DNA of 35,102 nt from Nemertoderma westbladi (taxonomy: Eukaryota; Animalia; Xenacoelomorpha): contig JAUCBJ010003963.1 in NCBI GenBank assembly GCA_032718475.1, positions 1-35,102 of the forward strand, read 5' to 3'. Under the pieces are notes generated by a model. That model saw only the letters and a program-made list of their open reading frames with translations. It was not told the DNA's origin and searched no databases. The position numbers were made by a program, and so were the translations under genes. Positions 5,374 to 29,271 of the stretch are shown here, piece by piece; the first letter of the stretch is position 1; each line of letters opens with the position of its first letter.

Positions 5374-7418
5374 CGACGGCTTATATTCAAAATGTCCCAA
5401 ATGCCAAATTATACTTTCTTCAGAAAATGATTTTTTAATATTCTAATTCTCCTTATTGACCAATGATGTTGGTTGTTCGGTAAGCGTCTCATTGAAACGA
5501 TGCTGCCTGTATACACTAATGATTTAAACATCACCCCTTACGCTATTCAAATATTTGGCATTTGGGATTTTTTGAAAAAATCGTTTGTCATATGTATTTG
5601 GTTTATGTGATATTGTTTCAAAACATCCCAAGTGTTTATTAGTGTATTGTATTAATAACCATAATGGCAAAAAGTTACCAACAAACTGTGCCATACACAA
5701 AAGAAAACCGAAAGTATGGACCAAAATCAGTTCAACCTCCCTCAACCTTCAACTTCAGTTCTCAATCAAGCTCATCTTCGTCCTCAACTACCGCTACATC
5801 ATCTTCATCAGTCTCGTTCAGCTCATCGGGAACTGTCTCATCTGGCAACATTGCCTCGTATTCACTCCTAAACTCCGGTGGGATTACCTTGTTCTTACAC
5901 AAAGACATGAGATCATTGAACTTCGCAGTACTTATTGGAAGTTGATTGGGGTATGCGCAAGGTGGAAGATCGTACCTGTGCGGATGCCTTCCGCGGTATC
6001 GACGGGGTAGAACAATCTCGTAGACTGGTGCTGATAGTTCAAGTGTCGTCGTATAGTGCATCTCTACTGTTGACCGGTTTCCTGTAGCTGTCTTATGGAA
6101 CATTAGAACTCTAATTTTAGACCACTTCACTTTTCTCCCTTCGTTATTCCTTATTCTTTTGTTTAGAAAATCCTCCTGGATGAGTTTCCAGTCAAGAAAG
6201 TCCGCTGATTTCATCGGAATGACAGTGTATGGTTCATCAAACACTTTAGCATGCCGTATCACAGTGTTCCACTCCGATGGTGCCCAGACTTCCTTATTCT
6301 TTAAGTGAATTTCTATTCGAGCATGGATCGAATCCACTGGCATATTGGTATGGCCTGGAAGTAGGAATATCAGCCTGATGCGAGAAACGTTCGGAAGACG
6401 GATTAGTACTTGATTTATGGTGGCGATTATAATTCGATTCTTATTCTGTCCACTGGTGCTGTCACAGAAAAGGTCTATTTTTTTCACATTAGGGCACCTG
6501 ACATTCAGATCAATAAGACTCTTATGGAGCACAGAAGCCACCTCAATAGATCCCCGCTTCGCCGTGTTCTCTCCCCAGATATAGCAATATCCCTTTTTAG
6601 TTCCACTCTCAAAAACAGACTCATTATAGAAAGCAAACCGGCGGGAATCTCCGATAAGCATCGAGTTAGCGTGTGGTGTGTTAAGAACTTTCTGCAGATC
6701 ATAGCTCAAACACCGGTACTCATCTGTCTCACGTTCTTGGGCTCGTTTAAACACCTGGGCAATGTTTTTTGGCGGCTCTTATTCGAGCATTTGGAGGTCC
6801 CACCGTAGCATCAATGTCCCCATTAAAGGTCGATTCCTCGTCAGTACTAAACCTAAACTCTTCTTCCATTGGCCCACTCCCTCCGTCACTATCCTCGGCC
6901 ACAATAAAACCTCCGAACGACATTGTATTAGCTGATTCGTATTATCGTATAAGACTGGAAGACAGGTTGACTCGCGTATAGTAAGTTGTAACCAGTATTA
7001 TACCGGTACGACTACCGTATAATGAAATTATTGTACAGCCAGCATGTAATCTGAACTGCAGTATTGAATATTAAATTTCCCGCCAAATTATCTACTTAAA
7101 AGCTTGCGGAGCCGGTACACTATTACTACTAGAGCTGCTCGTTACAATTGGGATATTTAGATACATACATTTCTGAAATTATACATCGATAAAGTGAGAA
7201 CTTGGGAGGTTTCAGGGGAATTTGGGATATTTTGAAAAAACCGATTTTCGAAATTTGGCATTTGGGATATTATGTTTTTTGATATAACTTCTAAAATAAT
7301 TGGAATATTGCAAAACCGCTTTGAGTGACTACCTCACCATGATGAGTAGATTGTCATTCACTCATAAAATCATTTTCGACCAATTTGGCATTTGGGACAT
7401 TTCGAAAATAAGCCGTCG
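5374..7418 (-). mobile_element. Sola1 DNA transposon, internally deleted
   Basis: ~36-bp TIRs CGACGGCTTATATTCAAAATGTCCCAAATGCCAAATT and AATTTGGCATTTGGGACATTTCGAAAATAAGCCGTCG. 4-bp TSD ATAT (5370-5373, 7419-7422) fits the AWWT preference of Sola1. Contains a transposase ORF. Confidence 0.85.
5762..6923 (-). pseudogene. Sola1 DDD transposase with intact catalytic core; probable N-terminal deletion and frameshift near 6765
   Basis: Motifs YDLQKVLNTP, CYIWGENTAKRGSIEVAS, LFCDSTSGQNKN and FLLPGHTNMPVDSIHARIE (D-D-D triad). The ATG at 6923 opens an acidic leader (MSFGGFIVAEDSDGG...) that is out of frame with the 330-aa core. Confidence 0.85.
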
Positions 7419-9328: not shown

Positions 9329-9940
9329 TCAGTTAGGTTTCTTGTATGTCACCATTGTGTCAACCTTGTGTATTTGAGTGCTGAAACTTTTGAGCTTGAC
9401 GTCTTCTCCATTAATAACGAGACAAGGACCGGATTCCGTGAAAGTGTCGGGTTCTTGTAGATCCTTCGCGGCGTACATTAGTATATCGAACGTACAAGGA
9501 ACATTGAGTGTGGGAAGGAAGGTAACACAAGCTACTATCTGTCGTATGACGTCACGGACTCCACTCTGTACTTTCTTGGCGTCGTATTCAACGGAAGATG
9601 AATCGTCTACTGATTCATCGCATTGCAGCTCGAATTGCCAACGTTCTAGAATATCTGAGGACGCTGTGTCCTTGACGACCATAACAACTCGCCGTAACGA
9701 CTTCAACATCAGCCACTCTTTGATGTGGTCCAGGACCAATGTCAGATACTCGTTGACTTTATCGTCCGCCATTACCAGCATAAGTAGACCGTGGTAATAG
9801 TCGCGTTTAAACATATCGGCTGGGTAAACACCCCGCTGGTATAGAATGCTGTTTATACCGAAACCAAGAAATTCGGTAACCATTTGACAGGAACCCTTTA
9901 GAGTGATGGTTTGCTTCGTCGCGGCAGTAGTAGAAGACAT
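9329..9940 (-). CDS. MAD2L1: Mitotic spindle assembly checkpoint protein MAD2 (HORMA domain), CDS without introns, nested antisense in the WBP2 intron
   Basis: 203 aa with ITLKGS, FGINSILYQRGVYP, LERWQF, VIRQIVACVTFLP, ESGP and VKLKSFSTQIHKVDTMVTYK, colinear with human MAD2 over its full length. No stops or frameshifts. Confidence 0.97.
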   Translation of the reverse strand: MSSTTAATKQTITLKGSCQMVTEFLGFGINSILYQRGVYPADMFKRDYYHGLLMLVMADDKVNEYLTLVLDHIKEWLMLKSLRRVVMVVKDTASSDILERWQFELQCDESVDDSSSVEYDAKKVQSGVRDVIRQIVACVTFLPTLNVPCTFDILMYAAKDLQEPDTFTESGPCLVINGEDVKLKSFSTQIHKVDTMVTYKKPN

Positions 9941-10284
9941 TATTCAGTAGGCCTATTCCCTTATTGAACGAATAGTCAACTACGGATGGATAGACAATTG
10001 TGTACTGGTGTACTGATGACTGTGAGACTGAATAACCGGTTAGGAGGTCTGGGTACAACAGGGGTATAGCATGGCCTGGCAGCCTGGGTATAGACTCGGT
10101 TGTCAGGTATTGTGTGCAGGCATACAATACAGTACAGCAGTATGCAGTACCGGTACGCTGTACATGCAGTACCGGTACCGGTACGGAAGAGTGAAAAGGT
10201 GACTTCAACCCCCTGCTTTGTACCATCTGACCATGTACAGATTTACTGGTACCGTCTGACCGCAGCCATCATAGCCAGTGGAAA

Positions 10285-10479: not shown

Positions 10480-10766
10480 TTAAACCGACGTAATTTTTAA
10501 TTTATTAGGTAGGCCTATATATTGGTAATTGGGTTGTAGAGTAGTTAATTTAAAAGGCCTATGTTGATTCTGATATTTTGATTATTTTTAGTTTGTTTGT
10601 CAGGCCGTTGACCTCTGGTAACTAAAATATTACGTTTATCTTTATATGCAAGGCATATAAAGTCTTATTCTGTATATCAAATTCTATATTTTTCAAACGG
10701 GCGGGATGGGGACTTTCCATTGGGGGGATCGCTCCATTTGCAACACTAATACAATAAATACATCAC

Positions 10767-11539
10767 CCTTACAGTAGCTCCTTACAGTAGCTCCTTACAG
10801 TAGCTCCTTACAGTAGCTCCTTACAGTAGCTCCTTACAGTAGCTCCTTACAGTAGCTCCTTACAGTAGCTCCTTACAGTAGCTCCTTACAGTAGCTCCTT
10901 ACAGTAGCTCCTTACAGTAGCTCCTTACAGTAGCTCCTTACAGTAGCTCCTTACAGTAGCTCCTTACAGTAGCTCCTTACAGTAGCTCCTTACAGTAGCT
11001 CCTTACAGTAGCTCCTTACAGTAGCTCCTTACAGTAGCTCCTTACAGTAGCTCCTTACAGTAGCTCCTTACAGTAGCTCCTTACAGTAGCTCCTTACAGT
11101 AGCTCCTTTACAGTAGCTCCTTTACAGTAGCTCCTTTACAGTAGCTCCTTACAGTAGCTCCTTATAGTAGCTCCTTACAGTAGCTCCTTACAGTAGCTCC
11201 TTACAGTAGCTCTTTACAGTAGCTCCTTACAGTAGCTCCTTACAGTAGCTCCTTACAGTAGCTCCTTACAGTAGCTCCTTACAGTAGCTCCTTACAGTAG
11301 CTCCTTACAGTAGCTCCTTACAGTAACTCCTTACAGTAGCTCCTTACAGTAGCTCCTTACAGTAGCTCCTTACAGTAGCTCCTTACAGTAGCTCCTTACA
11401 GTAGCTCCTTACAGTAGCTCCTTTACAGTAGCTCCTTACAGTAGCTCCTTTACAGTAGCTCCTTTACAGTAGCTCCTTTACAGTAGCTCCTTACAGTAGC
11501 TCCTTACAGTAGCTCCTTACAGTAGCTCCTTACAGTAGC
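10767..11539. repeat. 13-bp minisatellite (TTACAGTAGCTCC)n, block 1 (~59 units)
   Basis: Directly visible tandem array, with 14-bp TTTACAG variants. Confidence 0.99.
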
Positions 11540-13030
11540 TGTTCGCGGTATTTCAACTTTCCATAACGCGAGTTGAATATTTTTTGTATTGATTTAAAAT
11601 GATTATTCCGATATTACTACTGGGTGCGGGACCATGGGTTTTGGGCACATTCTATAAACTGGGGGCGATTTATGGGCGAACTTTGGGGCGACTTACAGGG
11701 TACGGGACTAATTTCATGTTTATAAGGGCCAGGGGGGGATGGAAAATTCAAGCAGTATTCAGGTTAGCCTGATTACTATTAGGCCCTGGCCAACTTCCTG
11801 CTGCCTGTAGAGGTGGTTTTGGTAACGCGCCAGGCCTAAAGGACAAGGACTGCCCTTAGCGGTCCCTGGCCAACAGCAGTTATTACGAGACTGAAAAGAA
11901 CTCGGAACGCTGACTGCTTGTGTCAGGGATTTGCGACGGGAAACGACACGACAGACCCCTAGCCAAGCCGTACTGGTTCTCGATGATCGTTCCCTTCGGG
12001 GTTCGTGAGGGGTGGGACGGACACGCGAAAGGGTCTACCGACTTACGGAGGAAGGGTTTGACGAGGACTGCCCTTAGCGGTCTCTGGTCAACAGCAGTTA
12101 TTACGAGACTGAAAAGAACTCGGAACGCTGACTGCTTGTAACAGGGATTTGCGACGGGACCGACGACAGACCCCTTAGCCAAGCCGTACTGGTTCTCGAT
12201 GATCGTTCCCTTCGGGGTTCGTGAGGGGTGGGACGGACACGCGACGGGGTCGAAAGACAAAGGACTAGACTCTACTGGCCTACCGACTGTTCGGAGCAGT
12301 TTCTCGGTTGCCGAAGCGACTACGAGCCTGAAAGGGACTCGGAAAGCCTAGGTGGTTGGGTTTCTGCGATGAACCGACGGACCCCTAGCCAAGCCGTACT
12401 GGTTCTCGATGATCGAACCCTTCGGGGTTCGTGAGGGGTGGGACGGACACGCGAACGGGTCCACCGACACGACAGACTCCTAGCCAAGCCGTACTGGTTC
12501 TCGATGACCGATCCCTTCGGGGTTCGAGAGGGGTGGTACGGATACGCGACAGAGTCTACCGACTGGACCGACCCTTAGCCAAGCCGTGCTGGTTCTCGAT
12601 GATCGTTCCCTTCGGGGTTCGGGAGGGGTGGAACGGACACGCGACAGGGTCGACCGACACCGACACTGCGGCATCAAGACTAGGACCGAGGGAAAATCTG
12701 GGGAACATTAGTTAGGCTAAAATCTGAGCGAACAGTGGGTAATTAAATAATATACTGTAGGGATTTATATTGTCGTGTATAATTATTGTGAATATTTGGT
12801 GTATATTGATTTGGGGAAGCCCAAAATTATTCTCAATCAGGTTCAACAGAGTTCAGTTACATTAAAGAGTATATCCAACTAATGCAGCTTTTTCTCAACC
12901 GCAACCTGCATCTCAGAAATCATTCCTTCTCCACAATCAATATCCGGTGACTGGCCGGGGCTCGGTGGTCTGTAAAGTCACGTCTCCAGCATCGGCGTTT
13001 TTCCCCCCTGGTGTTGGGATAACGGCAACA
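11540..13030 (+). repeat. 5' LTR (1491 bp)
   Basis: TGTTCGCGGT...ACGGCAACA, matching 23727-24742. TATA-like TATAAG at 11721, TCAGTT at 12853, ATTAAA at 12861. Confidence 0.95.
11759..12727 (+). ncRNA. Predicted multibranch structured RNA in the LTR: five k-turn/UUCG hairpins and three loop-E/GAAA hairpins inside a long-range closing helix
   Basis: Covarying basal stems AGACCC/GGGTCT, GACCCC/GGGGTC, GGACCC/GGGTCC, AGACTC/GAGTCT and CGACCCT/AGGGTCG. Closing helix TTAGCCTGATTA (11764-11775) pairs with TAGTTAGGCTAA (12709-12720). Folded by eye only. Confidence 0.6.
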
Positions 13031-13032
13031 AA

Positions 13033-13045
13033 ATTGAGAATAATT
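13033..13045 (+). promoter_or_regulatory. Non-tRNA primer-binding-site candidate, complementary to the element's own LTR
   Basis: ATTGAGAATAATT starts 2 nt after the LTR-terminal CA. It is the exact reverse complement of AATTATTCTCAAT at 12825-12837 and 24537-24549. No TGG lies next to the LTR. Confidence 0.6.
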
Positions 13046-13320
13046 AATGTGGTCAATTTTGACAGGGTGTCAAAATTGAGAATAATTATGGTCAATTTTG
13101 ACAGGGTGTCAAAATTGAGAGTAAAACGCAGCCAACTTCAACTGGTGGAAGTTGAGAATCCTTCAATACTCTTCAAAACTCTCTACGTGCTTGCCAGCAC
13201 CCACTACGAGGAAACTCTGGTATTTGAGTTAAGACGAAGTCGTGGTTTAATTAATCAACAAACTCGATCTAACCAACTCGTAGTCGGCAGATCACATATT
13301 TGGAGAGTTGTTAACAGGGA

Positions 13321-13512
13321 ATGGAAGTATCGATCACACCCATTGATATAATCCAAGTTGAGCCAGGAATCTGGCACGTCGAAGTTGAAGTACAAGGAAC
13401 GAACGTCGGACGATTCAGGATTACCGTTCGGGTGGTCCAAGCTGAGTACAATACCTACGAGGAACTGTTTTATGACATCGCGTATCTAGCTATCGACAAG
13501 GCGCTACAATGA
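13321..13512 (+). CDS. 63-aa upstream ORF of the BEL element, stop overlapping the gag start (ATGA)
   Basis: Alternating beta-strand pattern (WHVEVEVQG, FRITVRVV) and an amphipathic helix (YEELFYDIAYLAIDKALQ). TGA 13510-13512 overlaps ATG 13509-13511. Confidence 0.5.
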   Translation: MEVSITPIDIIQVEPGIWHVEVEVQGTNVGRFRITVRVVQAEYNTYEELFYDIAYLAIDKALQ

Positions 13513-16120
13513 CGACAAATAACGTATCCGATACCGACGAGATGGATCACCACACAGACTCGGAAGCCGACGAGGTACCAAACGTCAAGAACATGACCCG
13601 TCGGCTAGGGGCTCTCAAAGGCGGAGTAACCCGAGCGTATCAATGGATGGAGAAACAACTCAAGGGAGTCAAAACCCCCCTCAATGAGGTACAAACTCAG
13701 CTTCAAAGTATCCGAAATATCCTACAGCGGTACGAAAGAATGATACAGGCGTACCAAGAGCTCGTTCCCTCCACCGATCAGGAAAACTACCCCAAGTTTG
13801 AAGAACACGTTGTACATCTAGATGGGTTCCGCAAACAACACCGGAGGACCCTCAGCCTTGTGAGAGGCTATGAAGAACAGTACTACAAGAGAGCTGAAAG
13901 AACAGACGCGGAATCAGTACGAACCTCCAGCATCAGGACAGCAGTACATCGAAAGAGAACGGGGTCCGCTAGAAATCAGCACTCCAGCGCTAGGAGCGAG
14001 ATATCCAGCTCAGCGCGCAGTTCTCAAGGGGGGCCGCCACTCCGAGACCAACTGCGAGAACGGAAGGCATTAGCCCTCAAAGCTCGGATGGAAGATGAGT
14101 ATATTCAACTGCAAGCCGAGCAAGATGTATTAGCCGCCGAAACACAAAAGCGAGAGGCCGAACAAGCGGCCGAACGGCAGGCCGAACAACGCGAACAGGA
14201 GGCGGAACAACATAGACGAGAGGCCGAACGGCAGGCTGAACAACGCAAACAGGAGGCGGAACAACATAGACGAGAGGCCGAACGAGAGATCGAACAACGT
14301 AAACAGGAGGCTGAACAACGTGGACGAGAGGCCGAACGAGAGATCGAACAACGTAAATGGGAAGCAGAAATGCGTAAACAACACGCCGAGGCCCAAGCGA
14401 TTCTCATCCACAAAAAGAATGCGGATATTGCAAAACTCGCGGAATACGAAGCCGCACTTATAGAACGAGATATTCAACTCTACGAGGACTGGGAAAGGGA
14501 TATAGATCAGGAATATGAACCAATCCCGGTACCGGAATTAGAAAAGTCATTTATACTGACAGCGGCGAAACTTCCGAAACCCGAGATCCCGCCTACCAAA
14601 CAGTCTACGTTATCGGCACAAGCACCGGTGTTCCATCCCCCACCGGCTACGCTAAAGAATGAGGAACCTTATATCCCAGCCACCTCTACGGTCACGAGTG
14701 TACCCAAGTACGAGCCTGAAAGGGACTCGGAACGGGACGCCACTCCCCGATCCAACAACCCATTTACATCCACACCACAAACCCGTAGTCGCGTCATCAT
14801 TAAAACTCCACCTATCATTGATCCATCGAGTATGGGAGTGAGTGCCAATAACTATAACCCTCCGAGTCACTCCAGTTCAGACGACGTCAGTATTATCCGG
14901 GTGTTGGAAAACCGCCTTGCCATGCCTAAGATGGAGATCCGCACCTTCGAAGGAGATCCCGTCGATTACCTCAGATTCAAGAAACGGTTCTTTGCGCAGA
15001 TTGGATCAACGGACATAGCCGACGCACAGAAATTGGTATATTTATCGCAATACCTGGGTGACAAACCACGCAGAATTATTGCATGTTTTGAGGGAGGTTC
15101 TCATGAGGCATACTATGACGCATGGAAAACTCTAGATAAAAGATACGGAAATACCGGAACTATAATTAATAAAACTCTAGAGAGACTGATACAGGACGCG
15201 GGATCACTAGGGGACCCACAGAACATCCAGGAATTCTCCGACTCTATGAAGGATGCCTACTATACTCTGAAACCCTTAAATAAGGAGGACCAGGTGAACA
15301 ACATTCTAAACCTCCGACAGATCGCCCGGAAGTTCCCCGGATGGCTACAAAGTAAGTGGGCTTATAAATGCGTAGATCTCCGGCGCAGACATCCAGATCG
15401 AGATCCTAGCTTCCTTGAAATGTCGGCATTCCTGGACGATATCTCCGAAGCCATGAATGACTCGATGTTTTCAAAACAGAGTCTTGCCAAGTTGGACGGA
15501 ATAGAGAGCAACTCCAGGAGTAAGATAACCCCTCCGAAACCGAGATTCCGCCCTCCACCGGTGAGTACGATGGCCATCACCATGGCCGAGGATTCCGACG
15601 ACGAAGACTACGAGGAACCGACATCCGCCGAGGAATGGGCATGTTATCTCGCGAATTGGGCACCCGAAAGGGAAGGCATCACAAATTCCCTGCTCTGTCT
15701 CTTCTGTGGAGAGAAACATAAAGTGGAATTCTGCAGGAAGTTTCAGTTCGCCGAACTCGTCCCACGCTTCGAGGCGGTAATGAAACACCGAGGATGCTTC
15801 CGGTGTCTTGGAACAGGTCACTATGTTCTGGATTGCGACCAAAGATCATGCTGTGCCGTCTGTAACGACCAACGTCATCACACGCTCCTCCACATCCCCG
15901 CGAACTTCGATTTCACTACCCTCCCCTTTCGGATCGAAGCCAAGCGAAGAGGAGAAACAAACCACATTTTCAAAGGAACCCGGACAACCCAACGGAGAGA
16001 AACCAACCCGTTTAAAATCTCCACCGATACACCACAAGTAACAAATATTTCGGCCACGATTAATCTTATAAATCGCTGCTACATGGTCTTCGCAAAGGTA
16101 ATCCCAGTAAGGATTCAAGG
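13509..16120 (+). CDS. gag: BEL/Pao Gag (coiled coil, capsid-like DUF1759-type region, three zinc knuckles); frame shifts into protease near 16120
   Basis: MPKMEIRTFEGDPVDY...QKLVYLSQYL...AWKTLDKRYG; knuckles CLFCGEKHKVEFC, CFRCLGTGHYVLDC and CAVCNDQRHHTLLH; EAERQAEQRKQEAEQHRR repeats at ~14150-14390. Confidence 0.9.
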
Positions 16121-16920
16121 AGTCAGCAAATCCTTGACGCGTTCGCGTTCCTTGATAACGGGTCCGACGGAACCATCATCGACCGGGATTTCCTCGAGCA
16201 ACTCGGCCTAGAATATGAACCTTGTAAACGGCCCATACAAACCATCACCGATAACAGAGAGGTAGAGTCCGGGGAGGTGCAACTCCAGATGGAAGGAGTG
16301 ATGAAGGGCTACGAAACGGTTAAGTTAACCATCAAGAACGCCTTGGTACACACAGACCTCCGAGTGCGGTTCCGACAATCAGCCGAGTATGCCCCCCTCA
16401 TACAATTGGACCGAGACGATGTAGATCTGAGGTGTCCGCAGTTGGACGTAAACCGCATCACCCTACTGATCGGACTTGATACACCGGAACTACACATCCC
16501 CACCGGAGATATCGCCCGATCCATAAAACAGGACGACGGATTTTATGCTGAACGAACAATAATGGGATGGACACTCTGCGGCATTAAGGAAGAAACTACT
16601 GACACCTATACCTACCTTCCCAAATGTCAGATTAAAGAGAATGCAACCTCCGTGGGTTATTGCTCAGCTACGGACATTGACGAGGATTTGTTTCTAGAGA
16701 CTGAGAAAACCCAACAAGAGATGACGAAATATTTTAATCTAGAGACCCAGGAGTTCGCTGAAAAGGACGAAAACCCGTCCGAAGAGGATCAATATTGTAT
16801 GGACGTTCTCGACCAGGCCACGTTCAAAGACGGACACTGGTGTTCACCTATGTTATGGAAGGACCCAAACAAACCAATGGCAAACAACGCCAGCATGGCA
16901 CTTAGGCGACTTAGGGGATT
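16121..16920 (+). pseudogene. Aspartic protease and linker segment of gag-pol, bounded by two frameshifts
   Basis: The shifted frame reads ILDAFAFLDNGSDGTII...LLIGLDTPELH...RTIMGWTLCG...PMLWK...ALRRL. A further shift near 16920 continues LRRLNDQPEIKEKYNTVIQGYL. Confidence 0.85.
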
Positions 16921-19806
16921 CTACGCCGGCTGAATGACCAACCCGAGATAAAGGAGAAATATAATACCGTAATCCAAGGATATCTCGACGATGGATTAGC
17001 AGAAATGGTACCACGGAATGAACTGCAAGGTGGTAAAAGAACATATTATCTCCCAACCCACTATGTGGTAGAAGCCCGGAAGGGTGGGAAAATCCGAGTG
17101 GTAAATGATGCCGCCGCTACGTACCAGGGCGAATCCCTAAACAGTCAGCTTTACACGGGACCCAACATATATAGTACACTCATCGGCGTACTGATCAGGT
17201 TCAGGGAAAACCGGGTAGCATTCACCTGCGACATCAAGACCATGTTTCATCAAGTTCGTACGCTACCAAGAGACTCAGACTGTCTACGTATCCTATGGAC
17301 GGATAAAACACTAACTCAACAGGAGATTAGTCAACTTACGATAAAGGACGTAGACATAATGCGTATGGTTGTCAGGATCTTCGGCGCTAAGGACTCGCCG
17401 GTAGCATGCAGTGACATGCTGAAGAGGACGGCAACTATGTGCGAAAACGAGTTCCCTCCAACCGTCATAGAAACCATCCGACGATGCTTTTACGTGGATG
17501 ATGGATGCGCCGGCGCAGATAATGTGGACGAGGCATACCGGCTAGCAATGGGGATGGTAGAATGTCTAAAGAAAGGAGGTTTTCCGCTCGTGAAGTTCAG
17601 ATCCCACGACAAAACCCTTATGGAAAAGTTTCCGGAGGACATCCGACTGGAAAATAACAAAATGTATTCGGAGGATGTGGAACATCGTGTACTCGGGATT
17701 GAATGGGACATAGAATCAGACGAATTCATCTTCAAATATAAACCCCTACCCAAGCCTATGACAAAAAGGGGATGTTTGTCAATAAAAAGCGCCATCTTCG
17801 ACCCACTAAATTTCATATCTCCAGTAACCTTGGCCGGAATGAACCTGATTAAGGAAATGTGGATAGAAGGACTGGGATGGGACGAAGAGCTCCCCCCACA
17901 CCTCAGCGTCAAATGGAGAAAATGGACGGAGCAGCTCGAACACCTACATCTTATGCGGATACCTAGACCGTTCTTCCTCGATAAACTACCCACCGATATC
18001 TTCCAGCTCCATACCTTCTCGGATGCTTCGAATACCGGAATTGGCGTAGTCACCTTCTTACGAAGACTCAGCAACGATGGAAACGGTGATACGAGCTTCT
18101 TATTTTCTAAAGCCAAGACAGTATCCGGGGAATTCGTAGCAACGATTCCAAGACTCGAGCTACAGGCTGCAGTTTGGGCAGTAAGACAGAATCGCATGGT
18201 CATGCGGAACCTACGGATCCCCATTGAGTCTCAACACTTCTGGGTCGATTCGAGTATAGTTCTCTATTATCTCCACTCTCCATCACGGCGTCACACTACA
18301 TTTGTAGCGAACCGAGCCACAGAGATAAAACAGTGTACCGGCCGAGAACAGTGGCACCATGTAAACGGGAAAGAAAACCCAGCGGACTTATCAAGCCGAG
18401 GCGCCACCCCAAAACAACTCTGTAAAAGTAAACTCTGGCTTACAGGCCCGGAATTCCTACAACAGCCACAATTAACATGGAGTACCCGATTCGACCCCGA
18501 ACTCGATAGCGGAAAATACTCCGAGGACGATAAAGAGATCCGTAAAATCCATAGAAGCAACGCAGTGGAAATTTATAGCTGTCTGACTGAGCCTGCAAAG
18601 GACTCGGGCAGGCACTATAACGTTGCGACGATCATTCAACCAGCGGCGTCTTTACGACAGAACTGGATTATAGCTAATATAAGACAAAGATATTGGATCA
18701 CCCACATCCAGCCACTGATCCGGAAAGTGTTGAAACGTTGCTTTACCTGCAGACGTTATCTAGCGCCACCAATCACCCAAAAGATGGCCGACTTACCAGC
18801 CACCCGTCTACAAGCAGATTCCCCACCGTTCTACGTCACTGGAATGGACTGTTTCGGCCCGTTTACGGTCATCGAACGACGATCCAACATCAAATGCTGG
18901 GGAGCCATCTTCACCTGCCTAAGGTCTAGGGCAATCTACCTAGACATTGTGGTGAACCTTACGCAACACGCATTCATCAATGCTCTGCGTCGGTTCGTGG
19001 CAAGCAATGGGACATGTCGTCACATGTATTCCGATAATGGCACGAACTTTGTGGGAGGAGAAAGAGAACTTGGAGAGGCGATCGAGGGATGGTTTACCGA
19101 TAACACCGCATCCCAAGTCTGGAAGGAACACCAGATACAGTGGCACTTCCAGACCCCCTTAGCACCCCATACGAGCGGGGTATGGGAGAAACTGATCGAC
19201 CTAGTGAAACGGTCAATGCGCGTCGCTCTAGGAGACACCCGGGTAACCCATGACACCCTCCGCACAACATTCTGCGAGATCACAGCTACCCTGAACAACC
19301 GGCCCATTGTCCCTATCCGCGACGACCCCACAGACCTGGAGCCCCTCACTCCTAACCACCTACTGGGGAGACCTAAAACTCAAGTTCTCCCGGAGACAAT
19401 GTTTCCGGATCCCAACGATATTGCGAGACATACAAACTGGAAAAAGGCCCAAGCGTTGGCAGCACATTGGTGGATAATCTGGGCCCAGGAGTACCTCATA
19501 ACCCTCCGGACCAGGAGGAAATGGAACAACACCTACCGGAACGTCGCAGTTGGCGACATGGTACTAGTAAAAGAAGATCTCAAAGATCGCGTTCACTGGC
19601 CTGTGGCGCGGGTCGTGACCATACACCCAAGCAAAGACGGACTTGCGAGGACTGTGACGATACGAACGGCTTCGGGCCACTACCAACGCCCTATCCAGAG
19701 GCTGTGCCTTCTTGAAGGCAATGATAGCGGTGACTCTACGAGAGGTGATAAGTTCCCTACTCAAGATCCTGCTGCAGACATCGGTGACAATGATAAATGC
19801 GTTTAA
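16921..19806 (+). CDS. pol: BEL/Pao Pol: RT, RNase H and integrase, with an in-frame deletion before the integrase zinc-binding region
   Basis: RT: YYLPTH, KIRVVNDA, CDIKTMFHQV, FGAKDSP, YVDD. RNase H: FSDAS, IPRLEL, WVDS, NPADLSSRG. Integrase: GMDCFGP, SDNGTNF, WEKLI. The usual GRL/HP/His-pair segment is absent near 18600-18660. Confidence 0.93.
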   Translation, partial: LRRLNDQPEIKEKYNTVIQGYLDDGLAEMVPRNELQGGKRTYYLPTHYVVEARKGGKIRVVNDAAATYQGESLNSQLYTGPNIYSTLIGVLIRFRENRVAFTCDIKTMFHQVRTLPRDSDCLRILWTDKTLTQQEISQLTIKDVDIMRMVVRIFGAKDSPVACSDMLKRTATMCENEFPPTVIETIRRCFYVDDGCAGADNVDEAYRLAMGMVECLKKGGFPLVKFRSHDKTLMEKFPEDIRLENNKMYSEDVEHRVLGIEWDIESDEFIFKYKPLPKPMTKRGCLSIKSAIFDPLNFISPVTLAGMNLIKEMWIEGLGWDEELPPHLSVKWRKWTEQLEHLHLMRIPRPFFLDKLPTDIFQLHTFSDASNTGIGVVTFLRRLSNDGNGDTSFLFSKAKTVSGEFVATIPRLELQAAVWAVRQNRMVMRNLRIPIESQHFWVDSSIVLYYLHSPSRRHTTFVANRATEIKQCTGREQWHHVNGKENPADLSSRGATPKQLCKSKLWLTGPEFLQQPQLTWSTRFDPELDSGKYSEDDKEIRKIHRSNAVEIYSCLTEPAKDSGRHYNVATIIQPAASLRQNWIIANIRQRYWITHIQPLIRKVLKRCFTCRRYLAPPITQKMADLPATRLQADSPPFYVTGMDCFGPFTVIERRSNIKCWGAIFTCLRSRAIYLDIVVNLTQHAFINALRRFVASNGTCRHMYSDNGTNFVGGERELGEAIEGWFTDNTASQVWKEHQIQWHFQTPLAPHTSGVWEKLIDLVKRSMRVALGDTRVTHDTLRTTFCEITATLNNRPIVPIRDDPTDLEPLTPNHLLGRPKTQVLPETMFPDPNDIARHTNWKKAQALAAHWWIIWAQEYLITLRTRRKWNNTYRNVAVGDMVLVKEDLKDRVHWPVARVVTIHPSKDGLARTVTIRTASGHYQRPIQRLCLLEGNDSGDSTRGDKFPTQDPAADIGDNDKCV

Positions 19807-20100
19807 ACCCTTCTCATCATGTTGACAAACTCTTTTAAACTGTGATTTATCGACAATGAAAATGGACCCCCCTTAAACCAACTGTAACCACGCAATGGTA
19901 TTTGTGTTTCCTCGTGTGTTATGTGGAGTCCAGCGTCACCCTGCAGATGTTTTGACTGACGTAGGGTCGTTTATGTATTGTTTACCCTGATTTTGGTCAT
20001 CGGGACCAACGACTTTGGATTATTGGAAATGGTAAAGATTTGAAGTGGAATTCATTGTATTCATCGCAGTATGTTATGTTGTCCGTTGCGTGCGCAGTTC

Positions 20101-20500
20101 GGGGCGTAGGCGGTGTAACTAGTCCAGCTGTAGATCCCGGATTGCCGCGCAACACCCCCTCTATCCCGTTATTCTGGTGGGTCCATGGTGCATCCACATG
20201 ACTTCGACGATAGAGGGTTTTATGTTTCTCAGTCGCGTTATTCTGGTGGGACCGTTGCGTGGATTTTGGGGCGTAGGCGGTGTAACGAGTCCAGCTGTAG
20301 ATCCCAGAATGTTGCGTAACCCCATCCCACATGACTTCGTCGACTGAGCTTTATGTTGTTGGGAGTGTTATTCTGGTGGGTCCTTGGTGCATCCACGTGA
20401 CTTCACTTCCAGCGTCTTCATTGTCCGTTACGTGCGCAGTTTGGGGCGTAGGCGGTGTAACTAGCCCAGCTGTAGATCCCAGATTGCCGCGTAACACCCC
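20101..20500 (+). repeat. Interleaved direct repeats between pol and ORF3 (three copies each of two motifs), probably RNA stem-loops
   Basis: GGGGCGTAGGCGGTGTAAC...CAGCTGTAGATCCC...CCCC at 20101, 20268 and 20443. GTTATTCTGGTGGG...CCACRTGAC at 20168, 20237 and 20367. Confidence 0.8.
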
Positions 20501-21041
20501 TTCCACGACAAAGATTTCCCAAAGAAGATGATTGAATGTAGTTGGAAATGATGAAAAGGATCAGACAACTCTACTATAAACTGAATGATGACGCGTATGA
20601 TGATGAAAATGTAATGATGCGCACCCTGGTGCTGCGCTTATAACAAATGATGATAGCCGGGGGGCTATAACCCCAATGATGATGTGGAAATAAATGAAAA
20701 TTGAGAATAAATGGTGGAACTAAATGATGAAATATATGTGGAAATAAATGAAATGTGATGAAATAATAAAGAGAAATGAAAAAAGACAAAAAAAGGTATA
20801 AAAAAGTCTGAAGAAAAGAATTGGAAAAAAGAAAGGACATAAAAAGTCATAAAAACTGGTTGGATATTAATGTATAGTTATAGTAACTGTAAATGCTGAA
20901 TGTATTAGCAATAAGATGATAGATGCCTATATAGCAATGTTATTTAATAAACTGAACTGAATTATTCTGCAATCACTATAGTTTCAGACTTTCTGGACTT
21001 ATAATTAACTGATCTAATTTGTAACGGATATAATCGTAAAT

Positions 21042-22334
21042 ATGGACCCAAATCGCCAAATTATCGGCGAATTACGTAACACGATAGATCTACTGGAATA
21101 TTCGCAACCCGGATCTCCTGACTTTGATACAAATTGGAGCACCCTGCTAAATGAGAACGTGCGAGTCGTTAAATTCACCAGGCGAGAGGGACCGGATTCC
21201 AAGAATCTACGAGCCCTCTGGTTAGCCGATGCTAGTACGAGACTGAAAAGAACTCGGAACGCAAAGGCAACCGGAGGGGACGATTCGTCGTTTTGGGAAA
21301 CGTTCCGGCAAAGCATCTACAGATCCCGATGTTTGATCTACGACAACGAGGGAAACGCGACGCCCACCTCGAAAGCGATTACGTTGGCGAGATGTCAAAG
21401 TTTCGTCGACGACAAGAGTACGTACCTCGCCCACTGGGGAAACCTGTCGGAGTGTACGGCGACGCTTCGAGAGGAACGTATATCGACCATCCAAAGTCGC
21501 GACGACTACCAAGAAAAGTACGGGGCGAAAGAATACGGTCGATCCTTGGTCGTCGTCCTCGGAACACTGGACGGTTTGGTATTGGTGTGTCGAATATTTC
21601 CGACGCCCAGACAGGAAGTGCAGGCAGCCGGAGCGATCTGGTTGCTACGTCCGGAAATCCAAAAGATCCTCTTCGACTTCGACGTCATTAAAATCGGGTC
21701 GGATATAAAGGCGGACGTCCGGAACGACTACGCGAACGCTCCCTCAGGAAGAAACCGACGGGACGACCTCAACGCCCTTAGCCATTGCGTCGACACTCAA
21801 ACGCTATTAGCCTGGTTACGATTCGCCGAGTTCATGCGAGGATTCCGGGAGGTAAGACCGACGAAATCCGGGATCGGCTACCTTGCCGTGCTAAACGGCG
21901 GCATCGACTTCAAACCCCAGAAATTCCGGGACTATAATAAAATATATGGTGGATACCCGGGATTAGAAATAAAGAGCGAGCAAGAGGGTCGATGGAAGGA
22001 CGTTGATCGGAAGTGGACGATACACCAAAGGTGGGAGAACCCCGATCGACGGAACTACGTTTACGTCGTTATGGAGTGCTACACCGTCGCTAAGTTTATC
22101 TGTAAAACTCTCGATAACCTTATTACGGCGGTTCCTCTTTCCTTCGTTGACTACGACTGGAATGAGGTCATAAACCACGCATTCAAAGCGGTCGAGAACA
22201 TCACACCGGGAGAGACTAAAATGCTCGCCGTTATCGATTCCTGGGACGAGAGCGGACCTTACGACATCCCCACGATTACCGATCTTCTCGGTGCGGAGGA
22301 GCCTCTGATCTCTTCGGAAGGGGAAGAAATATAG
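21042..22334 (+). CDS. Accessory ORF3 of the BEL element: DnaQ-like DEDDy 3'-5' exonuclease (WRN-exo/EXD/MUT-7/RNase D-like)
   Basis: ExoI CLIYDNEG (D101, E103); SLVVVLGTLDGLVLVCRI; LRPEIQKILFDFDVIKIGSDIKAD (ExoII D225, compare WRN [23 protein letters not shown]); VDTQTL; ExoIII WENP...YVVMECY (Y341, with E345 in place of D). Confidence 0.7.
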   Translation: MDPNRQIIGELRNTIDLLEYSQPGSPDFDTNWSTLLNENVRVVKFTRREGPDSKNLRALWLADASTRLKRTRNAKATGGDDSSFWETFRQSIYRSRCLIYDNEGNATPTSKAITLARCQSFVDDKSTYLAHWGNLSECTATLREERISTIQSRDDYQEKYGAKEYGRSLVVVLGTLDGLVLVCRIFPTPRQEVQAAGAIWLLRPEIQKILFDFDVIKIGSDIKADVRNDYANAPSGRNRRDDLNALSHCVDTQTLLAWLRFAEFMRGFREVRPTKSGIGYLAVLNGGIDFKPQKFRDYNKIYGGYPGLEIKSEQEGRWKDVDRKWTIHQRWENPDRRNYVYVVMECYTVAKFICKTLDNLITAVPLSFVDYDWNEVINHAFKAVENITPGETKMLAVIDSWDESGPYDIPTITDLLGAEEPLISSEGEEI

Positions 22335-22471: not shown

Positions 22472-23554
22472 CCCTGCGAGGGAGTTGGTTACTACCTTCG
22501 CGTTAAACGACTTCGGCGATACGTGCCAAAGGTTATCCCCGTATCCTTTCCCGGGTGGCGAAGACTGGTCGTCGGAGATTCCGAGTACCAGGAATCAACG
22601 GACCCGCTCAGCGATATTGGTCGAGAAGGGCCCCAGCGCTGCGCCGACTCCCGACGATCTCCTCGGAATCCCTCCGTCGAAAACCCCTCCGTCATCCACC
22701 GCCAGAAACGGTCGTCCGAGTTGAGGCCGACGGGACACAAAGAAGGTTATCGGAGCGAAGAACTACTACGCCAAAGCCCAGCCTTCCGCGGGCTACCGAC
22801 CACCGCGAATATCCAGAAGAGCGACCGACGACTCGAGTATCACGTCGGCGTCCCGATTCCGATATTTCCCGGTCGAGAGATGCAGTTGGAGGTGTGCGGC
22901 GACTGTGGTTCGGAGCAGTGCCCACGCGGTAGAAGGAATCGGGTTACCGATTCATGCCTCCAGCTCCTCGGGATACTCTATTGCCCATACTGCGCGACAT
23001 CGGGCCACGACGTTTCCGTCTGTCCGATCCTATATAACCTCTGCACCACGTGCGGTTTCCGCGGGCATTCCTCTAGCCCCCGCTGCTATATCAAATGTCC
23101 TACCAAAGACGTTACCACTATGGGAAATATGGTCATGTTTGAAACATACGCAAACAGCCACATAAAGACCAAGGTTCGGAGAAACGCTCGGAATATCGCG
23201 CAGGAGATGGCGTGCAGGTACTTCTCCTTCCCGGAACACCTCCACACGTCGGCCACGTTGCCTTTCCATTACGTGGATTTGTTGCTGAGCGCTGGATTAT
23301 TCGGCCCATTCGAAGTCATTAGACGCTTATACTCGTATAAAGAGGAGTTCGGCGACGGAGAGTGGTTCCTCGAGGCTCGCAACTCCGAGTTGGAACGACG
23401 AACCGATATGCTACCGATGCCATCGAAAGGAAGAGCCGCCAGGAGACAAGCCGAAGCGTTGCTCACGATGGATGTTGACGCTCCTCTACCAGCTATTGCG
23501 ATCGACGAGAGCCGACGGGCGAAGAGGCGAAAGGCGTATCAGAGAAAGAAATAG
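22472..23554 (+). CDS. Accessory ORF4: CCHC zinc-knuckle protein with Arg/Lys-rich C-terminus; start uncertain, possibly the broken C-terminal half of ORF3
   Basis: CPYCATSGHDVSVC (Cx2Cx4Hx4C, 22982-23023), CTTCGFRGHSSSPRC (23042-23086), CGDCGSEQC, and terminal RRAKRRKAYQRKK. The frame is open from 22472 with no ATG for over 130 codons. Confidence 0.7.
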   Translation, partial: PCEGVGYYLRVKRLRRYVPKVIPVSFPGWRRLVVGDSEYQESTDPLSDIGREGPQRCADSRRSPRNPSVENPSVIHRQKRSSELRPTGHKEGYRSEELLRQSPAFRGLPTTANIQKSDRRLEYHVGVPIPIFPGREMQLEVCGDCGSEQCPRGRRNRVTDSCLQLLGILYCPYCATSGHDVSVCPILYNLCTTCGFRGHSSSPRCYIKCPTKDVTTMGNMVMFETYANSHIKTKVRRNARNIAQEMACRYFSFPEHLHTSATLPFHYVDLLLSAGLFGPFEVIRRLYSYKEEFGDGEWFLEARNSELERRTDMLPMPSKGRAARRQAEALLTMDVDAPLPAIAIDESRRAKRRKAYQRKK

Positions 23555-23717
23555 TGGATCGGGATATTCCAGGAACATTTATCGAACATTTATTTTTATA
23601 CATATATATAAACTCTAGGCCAAATTAATTAAAACTATGCAATATTAAATTTGGGTTTTTTATATTGGGAATGACCTACGCAAACTCAATCTACTGACAG
23701 ACTTCACGAAGGTCATT

Positions 23718-23724
23718 GGGGGGG
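23718..23724 (+). promoter_or_regulatory. Polypurine tract (G7)
   Basis: GGGGGGG-AC immediately precedes the 3' LTR TG. Confidence 0.8.
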
Positions 23725-23726
23725 AC

Positions 23727-24742
23727 TGTTCGCGGTATTTCAACTTTCCATAACGCGAGTTGAATATTTTTTGTATTGATTTAAAATGATTATTCCGATA
23801 TTACTACTGGGTGCGGGACCATGGGTTTTGGGCACATTCTATAAACTGGGGGCGATTTATGGGCGAACTTTTTCGAACTAATTTCATGTTTATAAGGGCC
23901 AGGGGGGATGGAAAATTCAAGCAGTATTCAGGTTAGCCTGATTACTATTAGGCCCTGGCCAACTTCCTGCTGTCTGTAGAGGTGGATTTGGTAACGCGCC
24001 AGGCCTAAAGGACAAGGACTGCCCTTAGCGGTCCCTGGCCAACAGCAGTTATTACGAGACTGAAAAGAACTCGGAACGCTGACTGCTTGTGTCAGGGATT
24101 TGCGACGGGAAACGACACGACAGACCCCTAGCCAAGCCGTACTGGTTCTCGATGATCGTTCCCTTCGGGGTTCGTGAGGGGTGGGACGGACACGCGAAAG
24201 GGTCTACCGACTTCCGAAGGAAGGGTTTGACGAGGACTGCCCTTAGCGGTCTCTGGTCAACAGCAGTTATTACGAGACTGAAAAGAACTCTGAACGCTGA
24301 CTGCTTGTACCAGGGATTTGCGACGGGACCGACGACAGACCCCTTAGCCAAGCCGTACTGGTTCTCGATGATCGTTCCCTTCGGGGTTCGTGAGGGGTGG
24401 GACGGACACGCGACGGGGTCGAAAGATAAAGGACTAGACTCTACTGGCCTACCGACTGTTCGGAGCAGTTTCTCGGTTGCCGAAGCGACTACGAGCCTGA
24501 AAGGGACTCGGAAAGGTTTGATTTGGGGAAGCCCAAAATTATTCTCAATCAGGTTCAACAGAGTTCAGTTACATTAAAGAGTATATCCAACTAATGCAGC
24601 TTTTTCTCAACCGCAACCTGCATCTCAGAAATCATTCCTTCTCCACAATCAATATCCGGTGACTGGCCGGGGCTCGGTGGTCTGTAAAGTCACGTCTCCA
24701 GCATCGGCGTTTTTCCCCCCTGGTGTTGGGATAACGGCAACA
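23727..24742 (+). repeat. 3' LTR (1016 bp), lacking ~460 bp present in the 5' LTR
   Basis: Matches the 5' LTR except for about 7 substitutions counted by eye, a short indel near 23870, and absence of the 5'-LTR segment ~12347-12806. Confidence 0.95.
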
Positions 24743-25286
24743 GTAGCTCCTTACAGTAGCTCCTTACAGTAGCTCCTTACAGTAGCTCCTTACAGTAGCT
24801 CCTTACAGTAGCTCCTTACAGTAGCTCCTTACAGTAGCTCCTTTACAGTAGCTCCTTACAGTAGCTCCTTACAGTAGCTCCTTACAGTAGCTCCTTACAG
24901 TAGCTCCTTACAGTAGCTCCTTACAGTAGCTCCTTACAGTAGCTCCTTACAGTAGCTCCTTACAGTAGCTCCTTACAGTAGCTCCTTACAGTAGCTCCTT
25001 TACAGTAGTTCCTTACAGTAGCTCCTTACAGTAGCTCCTTACAGTAGCTCCTTACAGTAGCTCCTTGCAGTAGCTCCTTACAGTAGCTCCTTACAGTAGC
25101 TCCTTACAGTAGCTCCTTACAGTAGCTCCTTACAGTAGCTCCTTACAGTAGCTCCTTACAGTAGCTCCTTTACAGTAGCTCCTTACAGTAGCTCTTTACA
25201 GTAGCTCCTTACAGTAGCTCCTTACAGTAGCTCCTTACAGTAGCTCCTTTACAGTAGCTCCTTACAGTAGCTCCTTTACAGTAGCT
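24743..25286. repeat. 13-bp minisatellite, block 2 (~41 units)
   Basis: Same TTACAGTAGCTCC unit as block 1. Confidence 0.99.
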
Positions 25287-28400: not shown

Positions 28401-29066
28401 CTTTGGAATGGTGGCGTTCGTAGGCGGCGTCTTTTGAAGGGTGGCATTCGAGGGAGGAGTCTGTTGATCGGTGGCGTTTGTGGGCGGCGTCTTTTGAAGA
28501 GTGGCGTTTTTGGGCGGCGTCTTTTGAACGGTGGCATTCGAGGGTGACGTCTTTTGAACGGAGGCGTTCGTGGACGGCGTCTGTTGAATGGTGGTGTTCA
28601 TGGGTGGCGTCTGTTGAATGGTGGCGTTTGTGGGCAGCGTTAGTTGAACAGTGGCGTTCGTGGGTGACGTCTTTTGAACGGTGGTGTTCGTGCGCAGTGT
28701 CTGTTGAACGGCGGCGTTCGCGGGCGGCGTCAGTTGAACGGTGGCGTTCGTGGGAGTAGTCTGTTGAACGGTGGCGTTCGTTCGGGACCCGTCTGTTAGC
28801 GTAACGTCCAGATCCTCCAACGTATCGTCGTTGAGGCTGCCGGAGGGAGAACCTGGGTAAACCGGCTGGGATAGAGACGTTGGAGATAGTGGCTTTACCT
28901 TGTCACTATCAGGCCGCGGCTGTGAAGAAAAAGAAGAAGATCTCCTGCCGTTTTCACAGTTCCCACTCTTTCCGGGGGCGCAATTTCGGCAACCCACTCC
29001 GCTCTTAGCACAAGAGCATGTCTTGCAGCGACCGGTCTTCCCATTGCAGACACAACAGGGCGCCAT
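25446..29066 (-). CDS. 1206-aa RT-RLE polyprotein
   Basis: N-terminal Cys cluster (CCVC..CKTCSC..CRNC..C). RT: GVRPIGIGECLRR, VDAANAFNSLNR, GVTQGDPL, WYADD. C-terminal CDGC...H...C finger, RHNELRD, RCD...IDI, AEDEKKRLY and FSPFVASCDG endonuclease motifs. Confidence 0.93.
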   Translation of the reverse strand: MAPCCVCNGKTGRCKTCSCAKSGVGCRNCAPGKSGNCENGRRSSSFSSQPRPDSDKVKPLSPTSLSQPVYPGSPSGSLNDDTLEDLDVTLTDGSRTNATVQQTTPTNATVQLTPPANAAVQQTLRTNTTVQKTSPTNATVQLTLPTNATIQQTPPMNTTIQQTPSTNASVQKTSPSNATVQKTPPKNATLQKTPPTNATDQQTPPSNATLQKTPPTNATIPKSGVGSTLLPNRSRVNPMDTFDQFWLPGASAPPQSVDPEGLMERAFGAPLSGRGAPPDHLLHQWRRVTQLQGSRYRLPGGSVGRDVVSLLDTEVRSLVVGLSRGDVLARSERLMMADALITHRDPNIVKAADIRRLISRRVVMWRSGEIDALLQEAERGSSLRSSGRRSGTQPSDKDVGHTVRVFTRLMLEGKVRSAVRWVTGRDSGGVLEPEADIEVGQRRVKVLDVLQDKHPAAALPNSDSTIHCSELPLKVDVDVTAAHIEDVARRLHGGSGPAGSDSTRWRDYLLRYGAHSERLRDTVAAFTRTLANVVVPWESVRALMSGRLIALDKCPGVRPIGIGECLRRIMARTMAVITGDDVTITCGAEQLSAGTSAGVEAAIHSMSSLFEDNADSGWGVLLVDAANAFNSLNRVAALWNARCLWPCCSTFLYNSYRGHSILVMKGTDTIIFSAEGVTQGDPLAMLMYATGALPLIRHLRSPSVRESWYADDSAGAGELADLLRWFERLLNIGPSYGYNPEPSKCYLVVAPEHEDEARRVFHDHPVKVVTGHRFLGGFLGSSGERRQFVRAKVAAWVDATDVLATMADSQPQAAFSAMVCSLQREWAYIQRVTADCEEEFTVLETAIAERFLPAVLGGSITPDERKLFSLSPQRGGMGLRNPVTEANPSYLVSTRGTRFLCGAMAGTEEFDLSAHRECLVRARKEDGETRKLAEISKFEEAMGALTEHRCRTIRRAAEYKTGSWISSLPRADLQYDLSPREFRDAVAVRYGKPLLGVPSRCDGCGAAFDLNHGLNCKKGGLVIQRHNELRDTVGDLAALALGPRNVMLEPVVREQMEDGDGAGLRCDVGIRGAFNAQTQALIDIRSTNLDAESYAKRAPMTILEAAEDEKKRLYAAAVAARRGDFSPFVASCDGVLAPQANMLLRIIATKLHSAWGKPYTTVMGWVRTRVQFAIVRGTSHCLRGSRTRWRSGLGFEDGAGLPTLAM
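28408..28780 (-). repeat. 30-bp coding tandem repeat (QQTPPTNATV-like, ~12-13 copies) in the CRE ORF
   Basis: GTGGCGTTCGTGGGCGGCGTCTKTTGAACG-like units on +. Confidence 0.95.
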
Positions 29067-29271
29067 ACAGGCGCAAGTAACTTGGCTTGCGAACTGAATG
29101 GGATAGTACCAATCTTACCCAAGTACTATACTATGGCGCCTAGCTGTCTGGCAGTTGGCTATCTCAGCATATGCAGTACAGCAGTAGCGGTATGTCCTAC
29201 TATTACTTCGCTATATTGACTGTCATTTTCTAATCTGGTAAAGTAAGTAACTCCCCCAACAGTACCCAAGG

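Follow-up and report, generated by a model that had tools for sequence, protein, structure and literature searches.

A candidate non-tRNA primer site, complementary to the element's own long terminal repeat, in a BEL/Pao retrotransposon of Nemertoderma westbladi

The window analysed here comprises 35,102 nt of the Nemertoderma westbladi contig JAUCBJ010003963.1 (assembly GCA_032718475.1). On its plus strand lies a full-length long terminal repeat (LTR) retrotransposon, whose bounds were determined from direct repeats and self-BLAST, and whose 5′ LTR is followed, at the primer-site position, by a 13-nt complement of the LTR itself. Judged by its sequence, the element is a member of BEL/Pao (Belpaoviridae): it has a Pao-type pol (PF05380, E 1.2e-38; PF18701, E 3.4e-28; integrase zinc domain weak), a gag that combines DUF1759 (PF03564, E 7.5e-15) with a zinc knuckle (CFRCLGTGHYVLDC, from 15795), TG...CA LTRs, a short target duplication and a polypurine tract. 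The same assignment had been made by an earlier sequence-only reading of this DNA, and the pol and gag domain matches bear it out. The gag, protease and pol frames lie in three different reading frames. Homologs at ~40% identity have the same pol domains, and the nearest pol homologs among 5.8 billion proteins are only ~40% identical.

The 5′ LTR ends in ...GGCAACA at 13030, which places its terminal CA at 13029-13030. This end is fixed independently by sequencing data. Contigs of four DNA runs from the same organism (X1-X4) and of one run from a second organism (X5) were mapped on the window, and in run X4 they continue from CAACA into three different flanks. At the other end of the element, the polypurine tract is followed by AC and then by the first bases of the 3′ LTR, TGTTCG. 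The target of the insertion is a satellite with the 13-nt unit CAGTAGCTCCTTA, which stays in phase on either side of the element; arrays resembling it (13, 14 and 27 nt) are found again at 29219-29582. The two LTRs are unequal, with 457 nt (12349-12805) and 17 nt (11684-11700) present in the 5′ LTR only. Otherwise 7 isolated substitutions are spread across ~790 nt, and the last 225 nt are identical. This asymmetry was considered as a marker of the U3/R border and rejected (0 differences in 225 nt vs. 7 in ~790 nt, P ~0.1, not significant). The 457-nt extra (vs. 24517) consists of additional 95-nt tandem units and an AT-rich stretch with TATA-like hexamers, and by read depth the longer LTR form is the commoner one. 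Within U3, tandem units of ~95 and 216-218 nt occupy 11842-12659, and their copy numbers differ between the LTRs.

Directly 3′ of the CA of the 5′ LTR stand the two bases AA, followed by ATTGAGAATAATT, which is the exact reverse complement (13/13) of the LTR stretch AATTATTCTCAAT. The LTR 13-mer is present again in the 3′ LTR, at 24537-24549. Both the complement 2 nt after the CA and its retention in the 3′ LTR had been pointed out in the sequence-only reading, and we recovered them at the same coordinates; the symmetry that it had described, i.e. two bases (AA) after the 5′ LTR and two (AC) before the 3′ LTR, also holds.

The site is AT-rich (85% A/T), and its match to the LTR was compared with dinucleotide shuffles, in which we counted complementary runs of at least 13 nt that start 0-5 nt after the LTR. 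Out of 5000 shuffles in each case, such runs arose by chance in two when the LTR was shuffled, in three when only its last 371 nt were, and in one when the leader was. A 13-nt pairing was reached in 10 of 1000 shuffles with G·U pairs allowed, and in 2 of 1000 with one mismatch allowed. The 10.7-kb internal region contains 12-mers or longer words with a reverse complement in the LTR at two positions only, namely 13033 and 13075. The 13-nt complement is confirmed, and by the usual standard it is not a product of chance. The second copy of the 13-mer (13075-13087) is there because the leader opens with a tandem array of 39-42-nt units, which themselves contain perfect 12-nt hairpin arms. The number of units varies among the copies of the family, as seen from joints that connect 13045 to 13090, 13053 to 13133 and 13089 to 13133.

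Table 1. Features of the element and its insertion site (positions in the window).
Feature	Position	Strand	Remarks
Satellite, upstream flank	10626-11539		13-nt unit CAGTAGCTCCTTA
Target-site duplication	11535-11539 (left), 24743-24747 (right)	+	GTAGC
5′ LTR	11540-13030	+	TGTTCG...GGCAACA, 1491 nt
TATA-like hexamer	12802-12807	+	TATATT; others at 12766 and 12778
Candidate self-primer	12825-12837	+	LTR 13-mer AATTATTCTCAAT
Initiator-like motif	12853-12857	+	TCAGT, A at 12855; putative
Putative poly(A) signal	12861-12866	+	ATTAAA; no other canonical poly(A) hexamer within the final 225 nt of the LTR
Tandem array	13029-13124	+	period 39-42 nt, 2.4 copies
Spacer between LTR CA and primer site	13031-13032	+	AA, 2 nt; mirrored by AC at 23725-23726
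Candidate minus-strand primer-binding site	13033-13045	+	ATTGAGAATAATT
Leader hairpins	13053-13118	+	arms TCAATTTTGACA (13053-13064, 13092-13103) with TGTCAAAATTGA (13068-13079, 13107-13118)
gag frame	13476-16211	+	first ATG 13509; DUF1759 and one CX2CX4HX4C zinc knuckle
Protease frame	16064-16933	+	weak aspartyl-protease match under the Pfam cut-off; frame other than gag
pol frame	16915-19806	+	Pao Peptidase_A17 region, YVDD, integrase zinc domain, DUF5641
Two further open frames	21018-22334, 22472-23554	+	438 and 360 aa
Polypurine tract	23708-23724	+	GAAGGTCATTGGGGGGG
3′ LTR	23727-24742	+	TGTTCG...GGCAACA, 1016 nt
Satellite, downstream flank	24743-25286		13-nt unit; opens with the right copy of the target-site duplication

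The feature of BEL/Pao elements that was not found here is a primer site that would pair with a host tRNA at its 3′ end. There is no TGG in 13031-13049, and none within 17 nt of the LTR end; the first one is at 13050, 19 nt beyond the LTR, where ~45% of the family depth has CGG. None of the variants in the four DNA runs puts a TGG adjacent to the LTR. The lack of a tRNA-type site asserted in the sequence-only reading therefore holds both for this copy and for the variants of these runs, and the reading's own counter-hypothesis, namely that a TGG site had merely been deleted in this copy, finds no match among them. ARAGORN detects no tRNA in the window. The TGGTC... at 13050 was considered as a vestige of a tRNA-Tyr site and rejected, as by eye it matches at 9 of 18 positions and diverges after 5 nt. 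The motifs that begin with the TGG at 13050 and at 13143 are missing from the tRNA ends of PMC13524379 supp1, a table of errantivirus-matched ends only.

In order to establish what occupies this position in related elements, the pol frame was aligned with 17 homologs, and 78 metagenomic BEL/Pao loci with 31-43% pol identity were searched. The motif TGGTCC..CGA[GA]CCGGA follows the CA after 0-5 nt on the coding strand in 14 of the 78 loci, and on the opposite strand in none; the other 64 loci mostly lack the leader, or their primer sites are not recognisable. The matching 12-mer of the relatives is labelled tRNA-Tyr(GUA) in a table of metazoan tRNA ends (PMC13524379 supp1). In the four relatives in which both LTRs are resolved, the tRNA-type site is spaced 1, 1, 2 and 5 nt from the CA. 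Similarly, Achilles, another BEL/Pao element, has a tRNA-Tyr primer site 2 nt after its LTR (PMC4580426), and the profile of the International Committee on Taxonomy of Viruses describes Belpaoviridae as primed by host tRNA on an 18-nt site, with tRNA-Arg or tRNA-Gly (PMC8742986).

Complementarity to the element's own LTR sets the Nemertoderma element apart from the others inspected. Its 13 nt compare with 5-7 nt for the longest complement to the own LTR within the 25 nt after the LTR in six LTR elements (4 BEL/Pao and 2 unrelated), and no own-LTR complement is found at the primer site of the 14 relatives with a recognised site. Inverted repeats of at least 12 nt behind a CA occur 25 times in the 78 loci; none of those that were placed, by pol position and not for all of them, lies at an LTR end. 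In two relatives, L008 and L011, nothing convincing was seen as a self-complementary site. Their LTR/leader border, which shows intron-like signals in both, reads TTGTAAGTAAT (L008:2117-2220, L011:2150-2170), and ~95 nt past it L008 has an intron-like T-rich run with AG. One metagenome locus contains a second, unrelated LTR element (L074:7698-11673) with GGTTATGGGCCCAGTC directly after its LTR, which we take to be a copia-type half-tRNA-Met site. As far as the sequences tell, the canonical tRNA site of the group is truly absent from the Nemertoderma element, and the 13-mer occupies precisely its place.

Folding predictions are consistent with a contact between the two 13-mers. They close the minimum free energy and centroid structures of both 12825-13050 (z -2.58) and 12800-13180 (z -3.24). 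The mean pair probability of the 13-mers is 0.95 in RNAs from 12825 up to 13500 (676 nt), and 0.94-0.96 if the RNA starts at 12810 or 12822 (to 13300). In these predictions the LTR 13-mer always pairs with the first copy of the site, while the remaining array folds on itself (outer leader pairing of 13053-13064 with 13107-13118, predicted probability 0.8). In RNAs that start at 12835 or 12855, the site is only 41-49% paired. The 13-mers are thus predicted to pair, provided that the LTR stretch lies in the same RNA.

Summed word depths of 10^4-10^5 in X1-X3 show the family to be very abundant, although depth does not equal copy number. X5 contributes a single contig, unbroken through 12719-13007, whose RNA nature is a guess only. 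At position 12834 of the LTR 13-mer, T instead of C is found in 53255 of 58902 depth units in X1 (90%), 52274 of 61474 in X3 (85%), 114178 of 136825 in X2 (83%), 133 of 199 in X4 (67%) and 5.66 of 5.66 in X5. This is the only common variant of the LTR 13-mer, and the copy in the window, with its C, belongs to a minor subfamily. In its usual state the family therefore has one U·G wobble beside 12 Watson-Crick pairs. Since the pairing survives as G·U, it is not itself refuted by the T at 12834. The site, in contrast, is fixed: no variant reaches 2% in X1-X4 anywhere in 13031-13045, including the partner position 13036, and variation resumes directly past this stretch (13046 A>C, 13048 T>C and 13050 T>C, each ~40-55% in X1-X3). 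The depth of the leader is ~0.2-0.5 of that of the LTR, so that most leaders should stand behind T-bearing LTRs, if depth tracks copies. Outside these runs, a single-protein scan of viral contigs for the same family returned nothing, and a 20-mer over the LTR end and the site has 0 matches in viral contigs. Three matches of this 20-mer to contigs of bacterial metagenome-assembled genomes were dismissed as chance, as they share nothing beyond those 20 nt.

Promoter and poly(A) motifs were read by eye and with regular expressions, and the functions assigned to them here are putative. The 13-mer lies downstream of the TATA-like hexamers (12766-12807) and upstream of the ATTAAA at 12861, a location that could suit a U3/R border. 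From these motifs, transcription likely starts in a zone of ~12810-12855, which contains the 13-mer. The TATATT at 12802 stands 33 nt upstream of A12835 in TCAATC. If A12855 were the start, the 13-mer would span -30 to -18, i.e. the position of a TATA box. Part of the 13-mer is also a repeated word: the heptamer TTGAGAA is enriched in the window (16 copies vs. 5.7 expected), with two antisense copies in the LTR (12830, 12892) and three sense copies in the leader (13034, 13076, 13152). Such an arrangement is compatible with various ways of pairing, or with a motif that serves some other role.

Our verdict is that the complement is real and that 13033-13045 is probably a non-tRNA primer site of the element. 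Because the first base added by reverse transcriptase sets the end of U5 and the bases to be removed by integrase, the 3′ end of any primer must pair at or very near 13033. The best single reading, which we hold tentatively and at less than even odds, is that this BEL/Pao element primes its minus strand with its own RNA, in the manner of Tf1. Transcription would start at or just upstream of 12825, and the first 9-13 bases (AAUUAUUCUCAAU) would fold back across the R-U5 segment of ~200 nt onto the site. The element's RNase H would then cut the RNA behind the duplex, and from the 3′ end so released reverse transcriptase would copy first AA and then U5. The resulting DNA end would be CA plus 2 nt, to be trimmed by integrase. 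We infer the start at 12825, the RNase H cleavage and the use as primer alike. In favour of self-priming, the complement begins 2 nt after the CA, the same distance as that from the polypurine tract to the 3′ LTR; the element has a 13/13 complement of its own LTR beside the 5′ LTR without a tRNA site; and in silico the RNA folds so as to place the 5′ stretch on the site.

Several observations weigh against this reading. First, primer and site do not change together among the copies. Compensatory changes among relatives had been named in the sequence-only reading as what self-priming predicts, and the change seen is one-sided: 12834 C>T is common, and no G>A at 13036 accompanies it. About half of Tf1 complementary DNA ends in a DNA copy of the primer (PMC11042837). 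By analogy, a self-primer would be copied into the plus strand, and approximately half of the progeny would inherit the site from the primer. Given such inheritance, a 13-nt primer with U should have made 13036 an A; 13036 stays G, although a 13-nt primer with U in its fourth-last place would predict A in the main lineage. For self-priming to survive, the RNA would have to be cut after base 9, or the C lineage of the window would have to differ from the bulk lineage. A cut after base 9 would leave 13033-13036 as template and a 6-nt overhang, whereas the relatives tolerate 5 nt at most.

Second, the conservation of the two 13-mers speaks neither for nor against self-priming. The LTR has ~18 variable sites in ~230 nt, for which one is expected and one is seen in the 13-mer, and the leader has 5 in 110 nt, for which 0.7 are expected and 0 are seen in the 15 nt. 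In neither 13-mer does conservation significantly exceed that of the surroundings. Third, the best-spaced pairs of motifs (TATATT and A12835, 33 nt; the 13-mer and A12855, 30 nt) put the start behind 12825, and a start at 12835 or 12855 would exclude the 13-mer from the 5′ end of the RNA. Finally, the match may have grown from the repeated TTGAGAA motif, with another role. The self-priming proposed in the sequence-only reading thus keeps its support from the position of the complement, the absence of a tRNA site and the predicted pairing, and loses ground on covariation and on the motif-derived starts at 12835 and 12855.

Among the alternatives, the one that fares best, though we consider it unlikely, is that the stem between the 13-mer and the site is real without being the primer: the stem would mask or present the site, and a host RNA ending in ...CUCAAU would prime. 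If R contains the 13-mer, the R-U5 domain would be closed by the stem; if only U3 contains it, the stem would hold the 3′ and 5′ ends of the RNA together. Such 5′-3′ RNA pairing occurs in yeast Ty1. This explanation accounts for a fixed site with a C/T partner, as a stem would tolerate G·U, and copying from an unvarying host primer would restore the site. It is also in keeping with the predicted pair probability given above for RNAs that include the 13-mer, and with RNAs that lack it, in which the partial pairing of the site would leave it accessible. In addition, Rous sarcoma virus needs stems that adjoin its primer site (PMC5445492). However, the available parts of the cited literature describe no primers but tRNAs, used by their 3′ end or by an internal half, and RNA of the element itself. 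A site that begins with A cannot match a CCA end, and 11 of the 13 bases are A/U. Cytoplasmic tRNA is not known to have such a composition. Moreover, no candidate RNA was found, as an Rfam search of 12700-13500 gives three chance-level matches only (E 3.8-8.6, far under the gathering scores).

It is less probable still that the complement is a by-product of an AT-rich piece of the core promoter, either a TATA-like box or a TTGAGAA/TTCTCAA binding motif that would act in either orientation in LTR and leader, and has no role in priming. The TATA-box placement of the 13-mer relative to A12855 speaks for such an origin, as do the excess of the heptamer, of which five copies fall within 330 nt, the frequency at which shuffles reach the usual state of 12 pairs and one G·U (10/1000), and the absence of covariation. 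Against this stand the rarity of the exact 13-mer (1-3 of 5000 shuffles) and its beginning exactly 2 nt after the CA, where the relatives have their tRNA site; a by-product would also leave a high-copy family without any primer site.

[quoted passage not shown]

Beyond the region of the primer site, the ~3.9 kb 3′ of pol contain three 83-nt repeats (20079-20503) and the two further open frames, with evidence neither for nor against an env-like gene. Neither frame has a family match in the domain search, and a protein search with the first one (21018-22334) gave no usable lead. Outside the element, a complete MAD2-like HORMA protein of 204 aa is encoded in one open frame on the minus strand (9329-9943). 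It is ~50% identical to MAD2 across many animal phyla, and represents an intronless gene or a retrocopy. Also on the minus strand are an open frame with a DUF7869 match (5762-6778, E 1.5e-10) and a 1222-aa open frame (25446-29114) with a weak reverse-transcriptase match under the Pfam cut-off and 30-nt tandem repeats (28371-28850); the latter is probably another retroelement beside the satellite. Finally, 24-nt and 42-nt tandem repeats at 30465-30806 and 32039-33015 lie in open frames and would yield repetitive proline/glutamine-rich peptides.

Self-priming has been reported for the Tf1/sushi group, and predicted for Tcn1 (gypsy) and TAR/Houba/Osr-1 (copia) (PMC6317226). In Tf1, the RNA's initial 11 bases are paired with the site, and the cut by RNase H falls between bases 11 and 12 (PMC7175516); the Tf1 site begins with A (ATAAC...) and is AT-rich (PMC11042837). 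Like Tf1 and Tf2 of S. pombe, the element described here has no tRNA site, an AT-rich complement of its own LTR after the 5′ LTR, and a predicted fold-back over U5. It differs from them in its superfamily, its domains being BEL/Pao and not of the gypsy-type pol that would place it in the Tf1/sushi clade, in the length of the complement (13 nt, not 11), and in a main LTR variant that is not mirrored in the site; furthermore, its 13-mer is a candidate only for the first bases of the transcript. With Tcn1 and TAR/Houba/Osr-1 it shares that self-priming is proposed from sequence alone and that relatives are tRNA-primed, but those lineages belong to plants and fungi and have the feature in many families, whereas here it is one metazoan family.

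Compared with canonical Belpaoviridae, the LTR termini, the 5-bp duplication, the gag and pol domains and the position of the site 0-5 nt after the CA are alike, and what differs is the absence of a tRNA site, be it of the Arg/Gly type or of the Tyr type of Achilles and the 14 relatives. GalEa and the bivalve TRIMs likewise have no tRNA site, and have short inverted repeats at the primer-site position that start from the last LTR bases. Unlike in GalEa, the first repeat here is non-palindromic and the local hairpin is not predicted, and a complement of the LTR exists, whereas the authors of the GalEa study found none (PMC5445492). Half-tRNA elements (copia, Osser, Bianca) resemble the present one in a primer site that does not start with TGG, but their sites match internal parts of tRNA-Met or tRNA-Ile (PMC6317226), and the site here has the A/T-rich composition noted above.

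Tf1-type gypsy elements are the only ones in which self-priming is proven; for a few lineages of plants and fungi it is predicted. The sequence-only reading knew of no BEL/Pao example, and our searches of the full-text literature likewise turned up no claim of one in the sources available. The wider proposal, namely that a metazoan BEL/Pao lineage dropped the tRNA-Tyr primer of its relatives for the first 9-13 bases of its transcript, and thus represents a third independent origin of self-priming among the LTR superfamilies, in a family grown to very high copy number, appears somewhat doubtful. If self-priming is wrong, the element would be one without any known kind of primer site, as are GalEa and the bivalve TRIMs. 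The C/T state of the LTR against the fixed G of the site constitutes a natural test of the copying of the primer into the site. If self-priming is true, freedom from host tRNAs would have evolved repeatedly, and pipelines that seek tRNA-type sites alone can miss primer sites of this kind.

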